Source of the DNA: Escherichia coli | Lineage (GTDB): Bacteria; Pseudomonadota; Gammaproteobacteria; Enterobacterales; Enterobacteriaceae | Assembly (NCBI RefSeq): GCF_024223415.1 | Contig: NZ_CP100500.1 | Length of the DNA: 64,000 nt | Strand: one strand, 5' to 3' | In this document: positions 399-63,971 of the stretch, one piece after another | Layout: the number at the start of each line of letters is the position of its first letter | How positions within the stretch are numbered: position 1 is the stretch's first letter | Position numbers and translations under genes: made by a program | Notes under the pieces: generated by a model | Told to the model about the DNA's origin: nothing | The model's database searches: none | The model's input: the letters and a program-made list of their open reading frames with translations, nothing else

Positions 399-3300
399 TT
401 ATTCCGGGCGCGGCTTCAGCGGGAAGCGGCGGCGCACCAGCACAAAGAACAGCGGCACGAAGTAAATAGCCAGAATAGTAGCTGAAATCATCCCGCCCAT
501 TACGCCAGTACCCACCGCATGCTGACCACCGGAACCGGCACCCGTGCTGGTTGCCATTGGCAATACGCCGAAGATAAATGCCAGCGAGGTCATCAGAATC
601 GGGCGTAAACGCTGACGGCAGGCGTGGAGCGTTGCTTCAAACAGGTCGTGGCCTTTTTGGTTCATCTCGTTAGCAAACTCGACGATCAGGATGGCGTTTT
701 TCGCCGATAAACCAATGACCGTTAACAGGCCCACCTGGAAGTAAACGTCGTTTTCCAGCCCGCGCATCCAGGTTGCCAGCAGCGCGCCGATTACCCCCAG
801 CGGCACGACCAGCATTACCGAGAACGGTACCGACCAGCTTTCATACAATGCAGCCAGACACAGGAATACCACCAGCAAGGAAATGGCGTACAGCGCCGGA
901 GCCTGCGCGCCGGAAAGCCGCTCCTGATACGACATCGCCGTCCACTCCAGACCAAAGCCGTTTGGCAGCTGCTTCACTAACGATTCCATAATATCCATCG
1001 CCGTACCGGTACTGACCCCCGGTGCGGCTTCCCCAACAATTTCAACCGCAGAATAACCGTTATAGCGTTCCAGACGCGGCGAGCCTGTCTCCCAGCGTGA
1101 GGTCGCGAAAGCAGAGAAGGGCACCATGCCGCCATCTTTATTTCGGACATACCAGAGATTGATGTCATCTGGCAGCATGCGATACGGCGCAGCTGCCTGC
1201 ACATAGACTTTCTTCACGCGACCGCGATCCATAAAGTCATTCACATAGCTCGAACCCCAGGCGGTTTGCAGTGTGTCGTTAATATCGTCGATAGCAACGC
1301 CCAGCGCCTGAGCTTTACGCTGGTCGATATCAATCTGCAACTGCGGACTGTCGTCGAGGCCGTTATGGCGCACACGGGTTAGCTCCGGGTTTTCCGCCGC
1401 CAGCGCCAGCAACTGGTTACGTGCTGCCATCAGCGCATCGTGACCTGCTCCAGCGTGGTCCTGCAACTCCATATCAAAACCCGCAGAACTACCAAGACCG
1501 CTAATTGCTGGCGGGCTGCTGGCGATAACGCGAGCTTCTTTAATCTTGTTAAACGCCTTCGTTGCACGCTCGATAATGGCAAATGAGGTGCCGGTCTTAC
1601 TGTCGCGTTCGCTCCAGTCTTTCAGGCGGATAAACATTCGCGCCACGTTTTGCCCGTTACCCCCAGGGCCAGAACCAACAGTGGCAAACACCGACATGAT
1701 GTTGTCTTTTTCATGGGTGAAGTAATATTTCTCGATTTGCTCAACGACTTTCAGGGTCTGTTGTTGGGTTGAACCGCTGGGCAATTGTACCGAGGTAGTA
1801 AACATGCCACGGTCTTCCAGCGGTAAGAACGACGTCGGTAAACGCAGGAACAGGAACACCATGCCGCCAAGCAGCAGGACATAAATCACAATCCAGCGCA
1901 GGCTGCGGTGGAGAATTTTCGCCACCCCTTTTTCGTAGCGTTCGGCGTTGCGGTTAAACATCTGGTTAAACCAGGCAAAAAAGCCTTTTTGCCCGTGATG
2001 CTCACCTTTTTTCAGTGGCTTAAGTAGTGTGGCACACAGAGCCGGAGTGAGGATCATCGCTACCAGTACTGACAGCACCATCGCCGCAACAATGGTAATA
2101 GAGAACTGGCGATAGATGGCACCGGTGGTGCCGCCGAAGAAGGCCATTGGTACAAATACCGCCGAAAGCACCATCGCAATCCCGACCAGTGCCCCCTGGA
2201 TCTGCCCCATCGATTTACGTGTGGCTTCGCGAGGACTGAGTCCTTCCTCACTCATAATACGTTCGACGTTTTCCACCACCACGATGGCGTCATCCACCAG
2301 CAGACCGATCGCCAGCACCATCGCGAACATGGTTAAGGTGTTGACGCTGTAACCGAAGGCGTAAAGTACGGAGAAGGTTCCCATCAACACCACCGGCACG
2401 GCGATAGTGGGTATCAGCGTGGCGCGGAAGTTTTGCAGGAACAGATACATAACGAGGAAAACCAGAGCGATAGCTTCCAGCAGCGTTTTCACCACGTCTT
2501 CAATGGAGGCTTTAACAAACGAGGTGGTTTCATACGCCACCTTGTATTCCAGTCCATGCGGGAAATACTGCGCCAGCTCGTCGAGACGATTGAGCACCAG
2601 CTCCGCTGTCGCCATTTCGTTAGCGCCGGAGGCCAGTTTTACCCCCAGCCCGGAGGCTGGCTTACCATTGAAGCGGCTAAGATAATCGTATTTCTCCGCC
2701 CCCATTTCGACGGTGGCGACATCGCCCAGCCTTACCTCTGAGCCGTCCTGATTCACCCGCAAGGTGATATCGCGGAACTGTTCTGGTGTTTGCAGCAGTG
2801 ACTGGGCGTTAATGGTGGCGTTGAGCGCCTGCTTATCGACGGAAGGTGTACCACCAAGTTGCCCAACCGCAATCTGCGCGTTCTGTGACTCAATGGCATC
2901 AGTGACATCTTTAGCCGTCATCTGGAAACTGTTGAGTTTCGCCGGGTCCAGCCAGATACGCATGGAATATTGCGAACCATAGGCATCGATATCCCCGACG
3001 CCATTCACGCGGCTTAACGGGTCCTGAATATTACTGGCAACATAATCGGCAATATCCTGTTTATCCATCGAACCATCGGTAGAGACGAAAGCAATGGTCA
3101 GAATATTGGTATCGCCGGTTTTACGCACCGTCACGCCCTGATTTTGCACCGCCTGCGGTAACTTTCGCATGGCTGATTGCAGCTGGTTTTGTACTTGCTG
3201 CACGGCTTCGTCCGGATCGGTGCCTGCTTTAAAACTTAAAGTGACAGATGCCTGACCGGTGCCACTGCTCTGAGATGACATATACATGAGATTATCGAGG

Positions 3301-3512
3301 CCGGTCATATTTTGCTCGATAACCTGGGTCACGGTGTTTTCCAGCGTCTGGGCCGATGCGCCGGGATAGTTAGCGGTCACTCGCACATTCGGTGGCGCGA
3401 GATCGGGGTATTGTTCAACGGGCAATGAAAAAATCGCCAGGGTACCTGTCAGACACAACAGGATTGCCAGCACCCAGGCAAAAATGGGGCGATCAATAAA
3501 GAAATTCGCCAT
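399..3512 (-). CDS. acrD: RND aminoglycoside/multidrug efflux pump AcrD (1037 aa)
   Basis: Full-length ORF; translation recognised as AcrB/AcrD-family RND transporter of the length expected for AcrD. Confidence 0.9.
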
Positions 3513-59008: not shown

Positions 59009-59069
59009 ATCGCAGATAGCAAAAAAGCGCCTTTAGGGCGCTTTTTTACATTGGTGGGTCGTGCAGGAT
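59009..59069. repeat. 61-bp direct repeat, copy 2 (authentic lysV 3-prime end plus its terminator)
   Basis: Includes the last 18 nt of tRNA-Lys and the rho-independent terminator hairpin gcgcctttagggcgc with its T/A runs. Confidence 0.85.
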
Positions 59070-59127
59070 TCGAACCTGCGACCAATTGATTAAAAGTCAA
59101 CTGCTCTACCAACTGAGCTAACGACCC
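59052..59127 (-). tRNA. lysV: tRNA-Lys (UUU)
   Basis: Minus strand reads GGGTCGTTAGCTCAGTTGGTAGAGCAGTTGACTTTTAATCAATTGGTCGCAGGTTCGAATCCTGCACGACCCACCA. Confidence 0.95.
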
Positions 59128-59131
59128 GAAG

Positions 59132-59207
59132 TGGTGGGTGATGACGGGATCGAACCGCCGACCCCCTCCTTGTAAGGGAGGTGCTCTCCCAGCTGAGCTA
59201 ATCACCC
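59132..59207 (-). tRNA. valY: tRNA-Val (UAC)
   Basis: Minus strand reads GGGTGATTAGCTCAGCTGGGAGAGCACCTCCCTTACAAGGAGGGGGTCGGCGGTTCGATCCCGTCATCACCCACCA. Confidence 0.9.
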
Positions 59208-59253
59208 ACTTCGGTACTTCACATTTTTACAAGAAATTTAGCTGGTGAGAAAG

Positions 59254-59329
59254 TGGTGGGTGATGACGGGATCGAACCGCCGACCCCCTCCTTGTAAGGG
59301 AGGTGCTCTCCCAGCTGAGCTAATCACCC
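59254..59329 (-). tRNA. valX: tRNA-Val (UAC)
   Basis: Identical tRNA-Val(UAC) sequence, second copy. Confidence 0.9.
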
Positions 59330-59373
59330 ACTTCTCAATTTCTTGCTACACGGCGGAGACTACATATAGTAGT

Positions 59374-59449
59374 TGGTGGGTGATGACGGGATCGAACCGC
59401 CGACCCCCTCCTTGTAAGGGAGGTGCTCTCCCAGCTGAGCTAATCACCC
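59374..59449 (-). tRNA. valU: tRNA-Val (UAC)
   Basis: Identical tRNA-Val(UAC) sequence, promoter-proximal copy. Confidence 0.9.
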
Positions 59450-59707: not shown

Positions 59708-61123
59708 ATGAAAATCAAAACTCGCTTCGCGCCAAGCCCAACAGGCTATCTGCACGTTGGCGGCGCGCGTACTGCTCTTTACTCCTGGCTTTTTGCACGT
59801 AATCACGGCGGTGAGTTCGTGCTGCGTATTGAAGACACCGATCTTGAGCGTTCCACGCCGGAAGCTATCGAAGCCATTATGGATGGCATGAACTGGCTGA
59901 GCCTGGAGTGGGATGAAGGTCCGTACTACCAGACCAAACGTTTTGATCGCTACAACGCGGTGATCGATCAGATGCTGGAAGAGGGCACTGCTTATAAATG
60001 CTATTGCTCTAAAGAGCGCCTGGAAGCGCTGCGCGAAGAGCAAATGGCGAAAGGTGAGAAGCCGCGTTATGACGGTCGCTGCCGCCACAGTCATGAGCAT
60101 CACGCTGATGATGAGCCGTGTGTCGTACGTTTTGCTAACCCGCAGGAAGGTTCTGTTGTTTTTGACGATCAGATCCGTGGTCCGATCGAGTTCAGCAACC
60201 AGGAACTGGACGATCTTATTATCCGCCGTACCGATGGTTCCCCAACCTATAACTTCTGTGTGGTTGTCGATGACTGGGATATGGAAATCACCCACGTTAT
60301 CCGTGGCGAAGACCATATCAACAACACGCCACGCCAGATCAACATTCTTAAAGCCCTGAAAGCGCCGGTACCGGTTTATGCGCACGTTTCTATGATCAAC
60401 GGCGATGACGGCAAAAAACTGTCCAAACGTCACGGGGCAGTCAGCGTAATGCAGTATCGTGATGACGGTTATTTGCCAGAAGCACTGCTGAACTATCTGG
60501 TGCGTCTGGGCTGGTCCCACGGCGATCAGGAAATCTTCACTCGTGAAGAGATGATCAAATACTTCACTTTGAATGCCGTCAGCAAATCTGCCAGTGCGTT
60601 CAACACCGACAAGCTGCTGTGGCTGAACCATCACTACATTAACGCGCTGCCGCCGGAGTATGTAGCTACTCACTTACAGTGGCACATTGAGCAGGAAAAT
60701 ATCGATACCCGTAACGGCCCGCAGCTGGCTGATCTGGTGAAACTGCTGGGTGAACGCTGCAAGACGCTGAAAGAGATGGCACAGAGCTGCCGTTATTTCT
60801 ACGAAGATTTTGCTGAGTTCGATGCCGATGCGGCGAAAAAACATCTGCGTCCGGTAGCGCGTCAGCCGCTGGAAGTGGTTCGTGACAAACTGGCCGCGAT
60901 TACTGACTGGACAGCTGAAAACGTTCATCACGCTATTCAGGCGACGGCGGATGAGCTGGAAGTGGGTATGGGTAAAGTTGGTATGCCGCTGCGTGTCGCC
61001 GTAACCGGTGCGGGGCAGTCTCCGGCGCTGGACGTTACCGTTCACGCGATCGGTAAGACCCGCAGTATCGAGCGTATCAACAAAGCGCTGGCTTTTATTG
61101 CGGAACGCGAAAATCAGCAGTAA
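59708..61123 (+). CDS. gltX: glutamyl-tRNA synthetase (471 aa)
   Basis: HIGH-type motif ([15 protein letters not shown]), KMSKS-like KLSKR. Confidence 0.95.
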
Positions 61124-61651
61124 TTAGCGCATAAAAGATAAACGGCAGGAGAGATACCCCTGCCGTTTTTTATTTATCCGGTGCGCCGTAAAACCCCGTC
61201 CTTCAGGGCGGGGATATAAGGCGCGGTTTTCCACCTGACCAGGTGTTTGCTGTTGTTCAATGTATTGGCGGATGACGGATATTGGCGCACCTCCGCAGCT
61301 ACTGGCAAAATAGCCAGGACTCCACAAAACGCCTTTGTAGTAATACCTGACTGCAATATCTGGTCGATCTCGTCGCAGTAACCTACCCGATACGCCTTTG
61401 AGGCTGTTTACCAGACTGGATATCGCCAGTTTGGAAGGATAGTTAATTAACAAATGGACGTGATCTGGTTCGCCATCCATTTCAACCAGTTCAGCTTCAA
61501 AATCAGCACATACATTTGAAAAGTAAGTGCGTAGTTTTTCTGTCGCGTCATAGTCAAAAATCTGACGTCGGTATCTGGTGACAAAGACCAGATGAACATG
61601 CATCAGGAAAACACAATGCCTTCCCCGTCGGATATCGGTTTCTTTATTCAT
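61124..61651 (-). CDS. tnpA: IS200-like HuH (Y1) transposase TnpA
   Basis: HVHLVF...PDHVHLLINYP (HuH motif) and GYFASS catalytic-Tyr region; the ORF runs without a stop through the gltX terminator so the true 3-prime end is uncertain; start at MNKETD or nearby. Confidence 0.7.
   Translation of the reverse strand: MNKETDIRRGRHCVFLMHVHLVFVTRYRRQIFDYDATEKLRTYFSNVCADFEAELVEMDGEPDHVHLLINYPSKLAISSLVNSLKGVSGRLLRRDRPDIAVRYYYKGVLWSPGYFASSCGGAPISVIRQYIEQQQTPGQVENRALYPRPEGRGFTAHRINKKRQGYLSCRLSFMR
61140..61172. terminator. rho-independent terminator downstream of gltX
   Basis: aaa-cggcaggagagatacccctgccg-ttttttatt. Confidence 0.7.
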
Positions 61652-62920
61652 AGACCAAAGTATCATTTGGCCGGTGAAACGACTACAGGCATTTAAATTC
61701 CAGTTAAGACCAGGTGGTCAACAGGAGCGTGAAATGAGGCGCTTCGCAGGCGCATGTCGTTTCGTTTTCAATCGTGTTCTGGCGCTTCAGAATGAGAATC
61801 ATGAGGCCGGTAATAAATACATCCCTTACGGGAAAATGGCTTCCTGGCTGGTTGAGTGGAAAAACGCACTGAAACGCAATGGCTTAAAGATTCGCCCTCA
61901 CAGCCATTGCAACAGTCACTGAAAGACCTTGAGCGGGCTTACAAAAACTTCTTCCGGAAGCGGGCTGCTTTTCCCCGATTCAAAAAAGCGGGGACAGAAT
62001 GATGCATTCCGCTACCCGCAGGGCGTTAAGCTCGATCAGGAAAACAGCCGTATTTTTCTGCCGAAACTTGGCTGGATGCGCTACCGGAACAGCCGTCAGG
62101 TCACGGGAGTTGTGAAAAATGTCACTGTCAGCCAGTCCTGCGGTAAGTGGTACATCAGTATTCAGACAGAAAGTGAAGTATCAACTCCGGTTCACCCTTC
62201 AGCATCAATGATCGGGCTGGATGCTGGCGTGGCTAAACTCGCCACGCTGTCAGATGGCACAGTCTTTGAGCCTGTAAACAGTTTTCAGAAAAACCAGAAG
62301 ACGCTGGCGAGACTTCAGCGACAGTTAAGCCGCAAGGTCAAATTCAGCAATAACTGGCAGAAGCAGAAACGCAAAATACAGCGACTGCATTCCTGTACCG
62401 CAAATATCCGCAGAGACTACCTTCACAAAGTTACAACGACCGTCAGCAAAAAACACGCAATGATAGTCATTGAGGATTTGAAGGTCAGCAACATGTCAAA
62501 GTCAGCAGCGGGTACGGTCAGCCAGCCGGGGCGCAATGTCCGGGCAAAATCAGGTTTAAACCGTTCGATACTGGATCAGGGCTGGTATGAAATGCGCCGC
62601 CAGCTTGAGTACAAGCAGCTCTGGCGTGGCGGTCAGGTGCTTGCTGTTCCGCCAGCGTACACAAGCCAGCGTTGCGCGTGCTGTGGTCATACAGCGAAAG
62701 AAAATCGCCTGTCACAAAGTAAATTCAGATGCCAGGTATGTGGATATACAGCGAACGCCGATGTAAACGGCGCTCGTAACATTTTAGCGGCGGGGCACGC
62801 CGTTCTTGCCTGTGGAGGGATGGTGCAGTCAGGCCGCTCGTTGAAGCAGGAACCCACCGAAATGATTCAGGCGACAGCCTGAACGTAGCAGGGATCCTCG
62901 TCATTCAGGGCGTGGAGGAT
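61175..62920. mobile_element. IS200/IS605-family element (divergent tnpA / tnpB); boundaries approximate
   Basis: HuH Y1 transposase gene divergent from a TnpB gene, inserted between the gltX terminator and the yfeD stop; ends not determinable by eye. Confidence 0.7.
61674..62882 (+). pseudogene. tnpB: IS605-family TnpB (RuvC-like, Zn-finger) with two compensating frameshifts
   Basis: N-terminus in frame 0 to TGA at 61920-61922; conserved block [39 protein letters not shown] is encoded at 61871-61987 in another frame; frame 0 resumes at the A6 run 61982-61987 and continues to 62882 with a CxxC...CxxC zinc finger. Confidence 0.7.
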
Positions 62921-62921
62921 G

Positions 62922-63314
62922 TCAAGCTGATTCATCTATGTCGAGACGAGCAAGGAAATTACGAATTCCTTCGCGTGACAAAAATTGCGCAACTTTTTCC
63001 TGCTCACTGTGAGTCATGTTGTCTATTGCGCTGATGATTTGCCGATAAGCAGGAGTGCGAATCCCCGGTGCGTATTCGGCAAGGGGTTCTTCGGCTTCCA
63101 GAAGCATCGGTGTGTTATGGAAGGCTGGCGTGTTCTGAATAAACTCGCAAACTTGTGTATCGACCAGAATAAGTCTGGCACGACCGCCTTTCACGCCGGG
63201 AAATTTTTCCGTTTTCCAGCCTTTTTCTCTGATCCAACGGTTAACAGTTTGTTTAGCCACACCGAGGCATTCAGCCAGTTCTTCGGTGGTCATTTTATTG
63301 CGTAATCTTTTCAT
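62922..63314 (-). CDS. yfeD: small DNA-binding protein YfeD (DUF1323, 130 aa)
   Basis: Recognised sequence; paralogue of yfeC. Confidence 0.8.
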   Translation of the reverse strand: MKRLRNKMTTEELAECLGVAKQTVNRWIREKGWKTEKFPGVKGGRARLILVDTQVCEFIQNTPAFHNTPMLLEAEEPLAEYAPGIRTPAYRQIISAIDNMTHSEQEKVAQFLSREGIRNFLARLDIDESA

Positions 63315-63315
63315 A

Positions 63316-63660
63316 TTATTTGCTATCGCGAATCCCTAAGCGTTGTAACAATCCGATAATCCCTTCCCGCAGAAGCAAGGATGTAAACTGTTTTTGTTCA
63401 ACTGGCGTCATCTCTTTCGCCAGTGTCACCAGCAATACTTCAAGCGGCGCATCACCAGAAAGGGCAGGCGCTTCTCCCTGACCTTCTGGACGTTCAGCAT
63501 TACGAATATATTCACGAACCTGTTCATTGACGTGAACCAGTCGGGCTTTGCCACCCTGGACGCCAGGTTTTGGTGACGTTGTCCAGCCTTCCTTGCGTAC
63601 CCATTTATTAATGGTCTGGCGGCTATAGCCGGTCAGTCTGGCAAGTTCATCTGGCGTCAT
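63316..63660 (-). CDS. yfeC: small DNA-binding protein YfeC (DUF1323, 114 aa)
   Basis: ORF 63316-63675; start set at MTPDELARLTGY. Confidence 0.8.
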   Translation of the reverse strand: MTPDELARLTGYSRQTINKWVRKEGWTTSPKPGVQGGKARLVHVNEQVREYIRNAERPEGQGEAPALSGDAPLEVLLVTLAKEMTPVEQKQFTSLLLREGIIGLLQRLGIRDSK

Positions 63661-63834
63661 CCTCTCCTTGAACATAACAATTCCCTGAATGTATGTGGGT
63701 CTATTAGTAGTTCATTTTATAGCACCACTTTACAGGAAACCGTGACATGAATAACTACTGAATGCGAGCGGTTTTCCAAAATTGTTCATTTGCCTGATTT
63801 TTCAGCGATTGAAACTACACGTTGCAATTTGCCG

Positions 63835-63863
63835 TTGACACATTCGGGCGGAATTCATATGAT
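63835..63863 (+). promoter_or_regulatory. sigma70 promoter of the tRNA-Ala operon
   Basis: TTGACA-N17-TATGAT followed by a GC-rich discriminator (gccgcccg), about 30 bp upstream of the tRNA. Confidence 0.6.
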
Positions 63864-63895
63864 GCCGCCCGTCAACTCGACAAGCTTTACGTGAC

Positions 63896-63971
<76 letters not shown>

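Follow-up and report, generated by a model that had tools for sequence, protein, structure and literature searches.

Gao et al. (2021) applied chromatin immunoprecipitation with exonuclease digestion (ChIP-exo) to tagged YfeC and YfeD and treated both proteins as transcription factors (PMC8464067). Pfam groups the two proteins in PF07037 ('Transcription regulator YfeC-like', once named DUF1323). In structure, their DNA-binding domain comes nearest to Pukovnik Xis (4j2n), BldC (6amk), pSK1 Par (8csh) and RacA (5i41). Considered here are yfeC and yfeD in a 64,000-nucleotide stretch of Escherichia coli DNA, termed the window (assembly GCF_024223415.1, contig NZ_CP100500.1), where yfeD adjoins a copy of IS609, an insertion sequence (IS) of the IS200/IS605 family. 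The locus is best read as an old duplicate core operon of winged-helix regulators with a silent IS609 insertion, and this reading as a whole is given a probability of about 0.8. The genes, the Pfam family and the IS are all already catalogued, and the finding is an ordinary one. Paralogy, fold class, synteny, the IS junction and the decay of the IS come from the present analysis; DNA binding and the regulon are taken from the literature.

The end of the window is a familiar stretch of the E. coli chromosome, in the orientation opposite to that of K-12. Both genes are on the minus strand, yfeD at 62922–63314 (130 amino acids) and yfeC at 63316–63675, with the yfeC stop 1 nucleotide (nt) ahead of the yfeD start (TAA-T-ATG). 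WP_000472021.1 and WP_000826499.1, for which RefSeq uses the names yfeC and yfeD, are identical in sequence to YfeC and YfeD of the window, respectively. They are the same genes as b2398 and b2399 of K-12, and the order alaW-yfeC-yfeD-gltX is common to K-12 and the window. The difference between the two is that K-12 has no IS between yfeD and gltX; its yfeD ends in GCA TAA and the terminator follows directly, whereas in the window the ending is GCT TGA, which comes from IS609.

An initial annotation of the window had placed two adjacent same-strand open reading frames (ORFs) here between an IS and a tRNA gene, and this holds: an IS200/IS605-family element is on one side and a tRNA-Ala(GGC) gene on the other. 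The 114 amino acids it gave for YfeC are those counted from the second ATG (63660), where the K-12 annotation also starts the gene; from the first ATG, at 63675, the protein has 119 amino acids. The extra N-terminal residues, M-x-K-E-R, are kept across genera, with M1, K3, E4 and M6 invariant in 28 species, and the codon for Arg5 varies synonymously (AGG/CGN) across genera. Conservation of these residues together with synonymous variation of the Arg codon argues for translation of yfeC from the first ATG.

Fold and family of YfeC and YfeD

YfeC and YfeD are paralogues. In a BLASTP comparison 36% of the 128 aligned positions are identical and 54% are positives (E=6e-27), a similarity well above chance level. 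Both proteins match PF07037 (cut-off 22.9 bits) over profile positions 1–122 of 122, YfeD with 206.1 bits and YfeC with 173.0 bits, and the window pair are full-length members of the family. The shared N-terminal motif pointed out in the initial annotation, MT..EL…G…QT.N.W.R..GW.T…PGV.GG.ARL..V, is real and can be seen in the pairwise alignment, where the recognition helix (QT.N.W.R..GW) is nearly alike in the two proteins. The identification of the genes as yfeD and yfeC, their paralogy and their DNA-binding nature are likewise upheld, by BLASTP, by PF07037, by the fold model and by the published ChIP-exo data (PMC8464067).

Generic helix-turn-helix (HTH) families match the two proteins more weakly than does PF07037. 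The best of these is HTH_17, which is of excisionase type (PF12728, cut-off 27): YfeD passes with 31.3 bits and YfeC fails with 20.9. TIGR01764 (cut-off 28.8) scores 27.5 with YfeD and 18.7 with YfeC, both below the threshold, and PADLOC, PHROGs and NCBIfam give only weak HTH-level matches to the pair. When the PDB was searched by sequence, YfeD gave chance matches to pannexin-2 (E about 1) and no solved relative.

Modelled with AlphaFold2, YfeD reaches a mean predicted local distance difference test score (pLDDT) of 72.9 and a predicted template modelling score (pTM) of 0.42, with pLDDT values of 81–84 in the C-terminal domain. Residues 7–61 form an N-terminal β-α-α-β-β-α winged helix, which is excisionase/MerR-like. 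This is followed by a disordered linker at residues 69–84, a region where YfeC is 11 residues shorter, and by three C-terminal helices at residues 88–123 that carry the conserved motif L..REG..G.L.RLGI. YfeC and YfeD can thus be looked upon as putative three-part proteins, in which a winged HTH (about residues 8–60) is joined by a variable, disordered linker to a small C-terminal helical domain that is conserved.

The beta-alpha-alpha-beta-beta wing that typifies the Xis fold is present. However, YfeC-like proteins differ from the excisionases, and from BldC, in carrying the additional linker and the conserved C-terminal helical domain. They differ from excisionases also in their setting, as yfeCD occupies a fixed chromosomal locus. 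The partner integrase and attachment (att) sites of a functional excisionase are missing from the flanks, which consist of gltX, IS609 and tRNA-Ala only.

RefSeq assigns YfeD the product name 'MerR family'. No Pfam MerR model matches YfeC or YfeD at E<=0.01. In MerR proteins a long coiled-coil dimerisation helix comes after the wing; the YfeD model has the disordered linker instead, and it is without an effector domain. With neither a MerR profile match nor a coiled coil after the wing, the MerR name lacks support, and 'YfeC-like, excisionase-type winged helix' would be a better one.

Synteny and duplication history

Among 1.84 billion representative proteins, a profile search matched only 261 at E<=1e-3, and few of these are full length. 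The scan of one genome per species found 80 loci, all of them in Enterobacteriaceae, and 79 were analysed. In every one of the 79, yfeC is directly upstream of yfeD, and in 77 a tRNA-Ala(GGC) gene is found divergently upstream of yfeC. A gltX gene could be located in 72 loci, and in 69 of them it is convergent with yfeD, 26–66 nt downstream. Between the yfeC stop and the yfeD start there is a spacer of 1 nt in 47 of the 79 loci, and the spacing is between −20 and +9 nt in nearly all; such tight spacing points to co-transcription and translational coupling of the two genes. In sum, yfeCD is a core-genome operon of the Enterobacteriaceae and not a mobile or toxin-antitoxin module.

The two genes have not been conserved to the same degree. 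YfeC is better conserved than YfeD in 75 of the 79 loci, with a median identity to the window proteins of 75% versus 53%. In a neighbour-joining tree, the upstream genes of distant pairs group with YfeC, and the YfeD branches are long. Remoter metagenomic loci have either the pair or a lone YfeC-like gene, in both cases beside gltX. These properties fit a single old tandem duplication with asymmetric divergence, in which yfeC is the conserved copy and yfeD the faster-diverging one.

Some exceptions and variants can be mentioned. In Enterobacter sp. BIGb0383 (positions 2244–3381 of locus L080) there are three YfeC-like genes in a row, yfeC and then two yfeD-like genes, which represents a further tandem duplication. 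In Kosakonia and a related Enterobacter sp. (loci L066, L067, L075, L077 and L087) no gltX is present within 3 kb downstream of yfeD, and the linkage is broken in this lineage. Several long proteins of 400–1,300 amino acids (P0165, P0170, P0173 and others) match only the HTH portion of the family profile (about positions 4–40), in 5–14 repeated stretches each, and appear to be tandem HTH repeat arrays.

The IS609 insertion at the end of yfeD

Alignment to the K-12 copy and to an IS-free strain puts the IS609 copy of the window at 61178–62925 (plus strand), a length of 1,748 base pairs (bp). It shows the characteristics of the IS200/IS605 family, with matches to PF01797, PF12323, PF01385 and PF07282 (Y1_Tnp, OrfB_IS605 and Cas12f1-like TNB domains). 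The element is inserted 3′ of the target TTAT (61174–61177, plus strand) without target duplication, and its right end reads ...GGAGGATGTCAA. TTAT is the reverse complement of A+TAA, i.e. the last base of the yfeD last codon plus the ancestral stop.

The IS-free comparators are strain FEA3 and K-12. In both, yfeD ends ...GAA TCA GCA TAA and is followed at once by a terminator hairpin that serves gltX as well. After insertion the yfeD strand reads ...GAA TCA GC|T TGA, where the changed bases are the complement of TCAA. The terminal TCAA of IS609 thus overlaps yfeD by 4 nt and supplies both the TGA stop (62922–62924) and base three of the codon before it (62925). With or without the IS, the YfeD C-terminus is …DIDESA; the window YfeD and that of FEA3 differ at one residue only, D52E, and the IS has no part in that change. 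IS609 would have entered single-stranded DNA 3′ of TTAT, the complement of yfeD ...A TAA, and its right end TCAA (complement TTGA) would have rebuilt the codon as GCT followed by a TGA stop, an event silent at the protein level.

The initial annotation had the IS ending directly at the yfeD stop. The two do adjoin, but the element does not halt at the stop codon and extends over it by the 4-nt overlap. It was also proposed there that the IS may alter the 3′ end of yfeD and its termination, and that an identical 3′ end in IS-free genomes would speak against this. The comparison gives a split answer: the last four bases of the DNA differ (A TAA to T TGA) and the terminator has been displaced, but the C-terminus of the protein is identical.

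The terminator is intrinsic and bidirectional (61140–61173; a 12-bp stem with 7 G-C pairs). It was once common to the convergent genes gltX and yfeD and is still found 3′ of gltX. It now stands 1,748 bp away from yfeD, and the yfeD strand has its next terminator-like site in tnpB, some 615 nt into the IS. Because the IS separates yfeD from its intrinsic terminator, yfeCD transcripts should read antisense into the IS and tnpB unless Rho stops them.

In the IS605 family, the guide RNA of TnpB is read from the right end of the element into the flank. The first 20 nt of the right-end flank in the window, GCTGATTCATCTATGTCGAG (62926–62945, plus strand), are complementary to yfeD codons 124–130 and, by analogy, would be the place of a TnpB omega-RNA guide. 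In the IS-free allele this flank is preceded by TTAT. The arrangement is the usual one for the IS605 family and is not new, and with tnpB broken there would be no nuclease for it to serve. A sub-threshold Rfam match to RAGATH-18 (26.5 bits; gathering threshold 44.9) is found at 62809–62852 (plus strand), inside the 3′ end of tnpB where a guide-RNA scaffold is expected.

The copy in the window is decayed in several places. The tnpB/insQ pseudogene (61674–62882, plus strand) shows two frameshifts, one from a −1 deletion (near 61866) and the other from a +1 insertion (at 61982), so that some 116 nt are read in the wrong frame; RefSeq labels it 'frameshifted'. The tnpA gene (61241–61666, minus strand) encodes the Y1/HUH transposase (PF01797, 2.6e-40). 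Its open frame crosses the left end of the IS (61178) and the gltX terminator and ends at 61124, beside the gltX stop, to give an ORF of 180 amino acids. RefSeq calls tnpA a pseudogene, 'incomplete, missing C-terminus', yet it retains the HUH motif as well as the tyrosine motif QYIEQQ. Two substitutions, at 62898 and 62903, have weakened the subterminal hairpin region of the right end (62878–62925, plus strand), and its DNA fold, at −4.5 kcal/mol (z=−0.26), is no better than that of shuffled sequence, versus −9.3 kcal/mol (z=−2.4) for the K-12 copy. The left-end hairpin is intact (−14.1 kcal/mol, z=−3.1).

The K-12 copy, adjacent to ydcO, is 97.3% identical to that of the window and resembles it in its length of 1,748 bp, the TTAT target, the TCAA right end and the divergent tnpA/tnpB. 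Both copies have TTAT at the left junction and no duplication. The state of the hairpins is reversed in K-12, with the left end damaged and the right end sound, and the window copy differs further in having the two tnpB frameshifts.

Of 5,426 complete E. coli genomes, 501 (about 9%) have the IS at the yfeD site. A 120-nt sequence across the junction matched 2,234 genomes in megablast, but with so short a query this figure is not used as a count of IS-free alleles. Three carriers that are 1–2% divergent were compared; the junction is identical in all, and they have in common the right-end substitution at 62898. At this same site tnpB has two frameshifts in the window, is intact in PNUSAE147324 and has a 2-nt insertion in CREC-591. 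From the differing tnpB states at an identical junction it follows that the decay of tnpB is independent in each lineage. The whole looks like one old inherited insertion that is now decaying.

The idea that IS609 generally lands on stop codons was considered and rejected. Among the other sites inspected, two interrupt genes (DUF3251 and TetR), one is intergenic, and at one the left end of the element overlaps the 3′ end of DUF1869. The site beside ydcO in K-12, where the right-end TCAA likewise holds the annotated ydcO stop (L003, 2150–2153), is the only inspected site that resembles yfeD in having a TCAA-derived stop. What the yfeD junction does display is an IS608/IS609-type element that has landed on the ...A-TAA of a convergent gene, with its own TCAA end restoring the stop.

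Perhaps the insertion is more than a silent passenger. IS609 might change yfeD or yfeCD expression by loss of the terminator, by convergent tnpB/omega-RNA transcription or by the TAA-to-TGA change, and the displaced terminator with its nearest substitute some 615 nt inside the IS, the guide-position flank lying antisense to yfeD codons 124–130, and the presence of the allele in 9% of complete genomes can all be read in this way. However, the YfeD protein is unchanged, the broken tnpB and degraded right-end hairpin are like neutral decay, and Rho could end untranslated antisense read-through. Some change in expression may follow from the IS, but a functional role for it is considered unlikely, and the silent insertion is the reading retained here. 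It should nevertheless be kept in mind, when yfeCD expression or phenotypes are compared across strains, that about 9% of complete E. coli genomes have a yfeD stop made of IS609 sequence and have lost the terminator.

DNA binding and control of the operon

ChIP-exo detected 50 YfeC sites, with a TTC-rich inverted-repeat motif of 6-nt spacing; 40% of these sites are inside genes, and the transcriptional effects are mixed (PMC8464067). For YfeD, at least 36 sites are among those listed (PMC8464067). YfeC and YfeD peaks both start at 3332954, at ispB/sfsB/rplU (PMC8464067). The yfeC knockout has 205 differentially expressed genes, 16 of 20 direct YfeC targets are repressed, and YfeC was linked to an earlier extracellular-DNA phenotype (PMC8464067). 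On deletion of yfeC, yfeD itself changes by a log2 fold change of +4.33, roughly 20-fold (PMC8464067 supplement). A ΔyfeC::kan mutant of a K1 strain colonises the neonatal rat small intestine poorly (PMC5847654), and in a yfeC mutant of enterohaemorrhagic E. coli the expression of the locus of enterocyte effacement is unaffected. RefSeq labels the K-12 YfeC a 'DNA-binding transcriptional dual regulator'. The view in the initial annotation that the pair is poorly characterised is therefore right only in part, as 50 ChIP-exo sites, the transcriptome of a knockout and two phenotypes of knockouts are on record for YfeC.

Because their recognition helices are nearly the same, YfeC and YfeD probably read similar DNA sites. 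The C-terminal domain may mediate self-association and so allow the proteins to bind inverted repeats as sequence-specific transcription factors; the conservation of the domain and the palindromic motifs suggest this dimerisation role. YfeC acts mainly as a repressor and would probably hold down its own operon, and autorepression of yfeCD by YfeC is plausible.

The divergent control region between yfeC and tRNA-Ala (63676–63895) was analysed by a promoter scan and a footprint alignment of 26 genera. A candidate extended −10 element of yfeC, TGCTATAAA (63716–63724, minus strand), is conserved in the alignment, as is a half-palindrome, CTCGCA (63763–63768, minus strand), and the tRNA-Ala promoter TTGACA-17-TATGAT (63835–63863, plus strand) is strongly conserved. 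About 60–80 nt upstream of the yfeC −10, many of these genera have a perfect palindrome, TTGCGAG-N4-CTCGCAA (7+4+7), and the full palindrome TTGCGAGnnnnCTCGCAA is kept in an Enterobacter species. Escherichia (63763–63779 in the window), Citrobacter and Salmonella have lost the left half to decay and keep just the right one, CTCGCA. A repeat search of the yfeC-tRNA spacer of the window gives weak inverted repeats only; the palindrome becomes visible only across genera. It is a candidate operator for a binding protein, and the yfeC promoter and operator as a whole are predictions based on conservation. Rfam matched the tRNA gene and found no curated RNA in the region of yfeCD.

Several observations speak against the regulatory part of this account. 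The YfeC peak labelled 'yfeC' is at 2516052–2516085 in NC_000913.2 coordinates. From the genome lengths and the positions of two added IS elements, the offset from NC_000913.2 to NC_000913.3 is presumably about +1,976 bp. The converted peak (about 2518028–2518061 in NC_000913.3) then falls on the 3′ end of alaX, some 400 bp upstream of yfeC, and not on the yfeC promoter. Since the peak converts to alaX, a gene just past the window end, it was dropped as proof of autoregulation. In addition, many YfeC peaks are at very highly expressed genes (lpp, rpmH, rpmB, rpsU, rplU, a tRNA); peaks at such genes are often ChIP artefacts, and hyper-ChIPable artefacts are a possibility here. The deletion construct could, through polarity, account for the rise of yfeD in the yfeC knockout. 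As for self-association, an AlphaFold2 model of a fused YfeC-(GGGGS)6-YfeD, made with a 28-species paired alignment, has a pTM of 0.27, and the C-terminal domains have a pLDDT of about 65, below that in the monomer; this outcome is compatible with hetero- or homodimers as well as with their absence.

A different mode of DNA binding can also be envisaged. In the manner of BldC, Xis, RacA and pSK1 Par, YfeC and YfeD might be architectural proteins that coat repeats as head-to-tail multimers and do not bind classical dimeric operators. Those very proteins are the nearest structural neighbours of the DNA-binding domain, the ChIP-exo sites number in the tens and are scattered, 40% intragenic and mixed in effect, and the heterodimer model is not confident. 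However, Xis and BldC have no counterpart of the conserved C-terminal domain, the two halves of the published YfeC inverted-repeat motif stand at a fixed 6-nt spacing, and the perfect 7+4+7 palindrome found upstream of yfeC in many genera suggests a symmetric dimer. Architectural coating is therefore judged quite improbable, and binding as dimeric, sequence-specific regulators is preferred.

The linkage of yfeCD with gltX and tRNA genes is maintained across the family and also in a distant single-copy locus, and YfeC peaks occur at alaX and at ribosomal-protein genes. Because of this, the linkage might be looked at as functional, with the pair acting as asymmetrically diverged regulators of translation-apparatus genes and with the IS609 allele (~9% of genomes) retuning it through removal of the terminator and through tnpB/omega-RNA antisense to the yfeD 3′ end. 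Taken together, these two propositions are highly speculative and very unlikely to hold.

The pair consists of excisionase-like genes beside a tRNA gene, and it could for this reason be regarded as a domesticated remnant of an integrative element. There is, however, no integrase or att-like repeat between gltX and tRNA-Ala, and the genes are on the 5′ (promoter) side of the tRNA, whereas elements integrate at the 3′ end. Synteny is family-wide, and the distant single-copy locus also keeps its gene beside gltX. Nor do the 261 representatives among 1.84 billion proteins include a clear mobile-element clade. Such an origin would in any case predate the Enterobacteriaceae and be uninformative on present function, and it can be given hardly any weight.

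A type II toxin-antitoxin pair, as suggested by two small, adjacent, co-oriented and tightly spaced genes of which one has an HTH, by a high-confidence ranking in the 2007 RASTA-Bacteria prediction (PMC2374986), by reuse of that label in a 2018 transposon directed insertion-site sequencing (TraDIS) paper on K1 (PMC5847654) and by a weak Pfam match to YdaS_toxin (18.8 bits, below the cut-off of 30), is largely refuted and close to negligible in probability, since YfeC and YfeD are paralogues with the same domain order rather than a toxin matched with its antitoxin, Pfam, NCBIfam and PADLOC show no toxin domain above the cut-off, synteny is fixed in all 79 Enterobacteriaceae species sampled versus the patchy distribution of toxin-antitoxin systems, and yfeC deletions are viable in several studies. 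The toxin-antitoxin label on yfeCD misfits the evidence.

The genes that border the operon in the window are those of the K-12 chromosome. The tRNA-Ala(GGC) gene (63896–63971, plus strand), identified with ARAGORN and by an Rfam tRNA match of 63 bits, is the counterpart of K-12 alaW and is divergent from yfeC. On the other side, gltX (59708–61123, plus strand) is followed by the IS200/IS605-family element. Divergent from gltX is a tRNA cluster (59052–59449, minus strand) with three genes for tRNA-Val(UAC) and one for tRNA-Lys(UUU), which corresponds to the K-12 valU-valX-valY-lysV operon. A pair of tRNA-Val and tRNA-Lys genes also adjoins gltX in the distant single-copy locus (L007).

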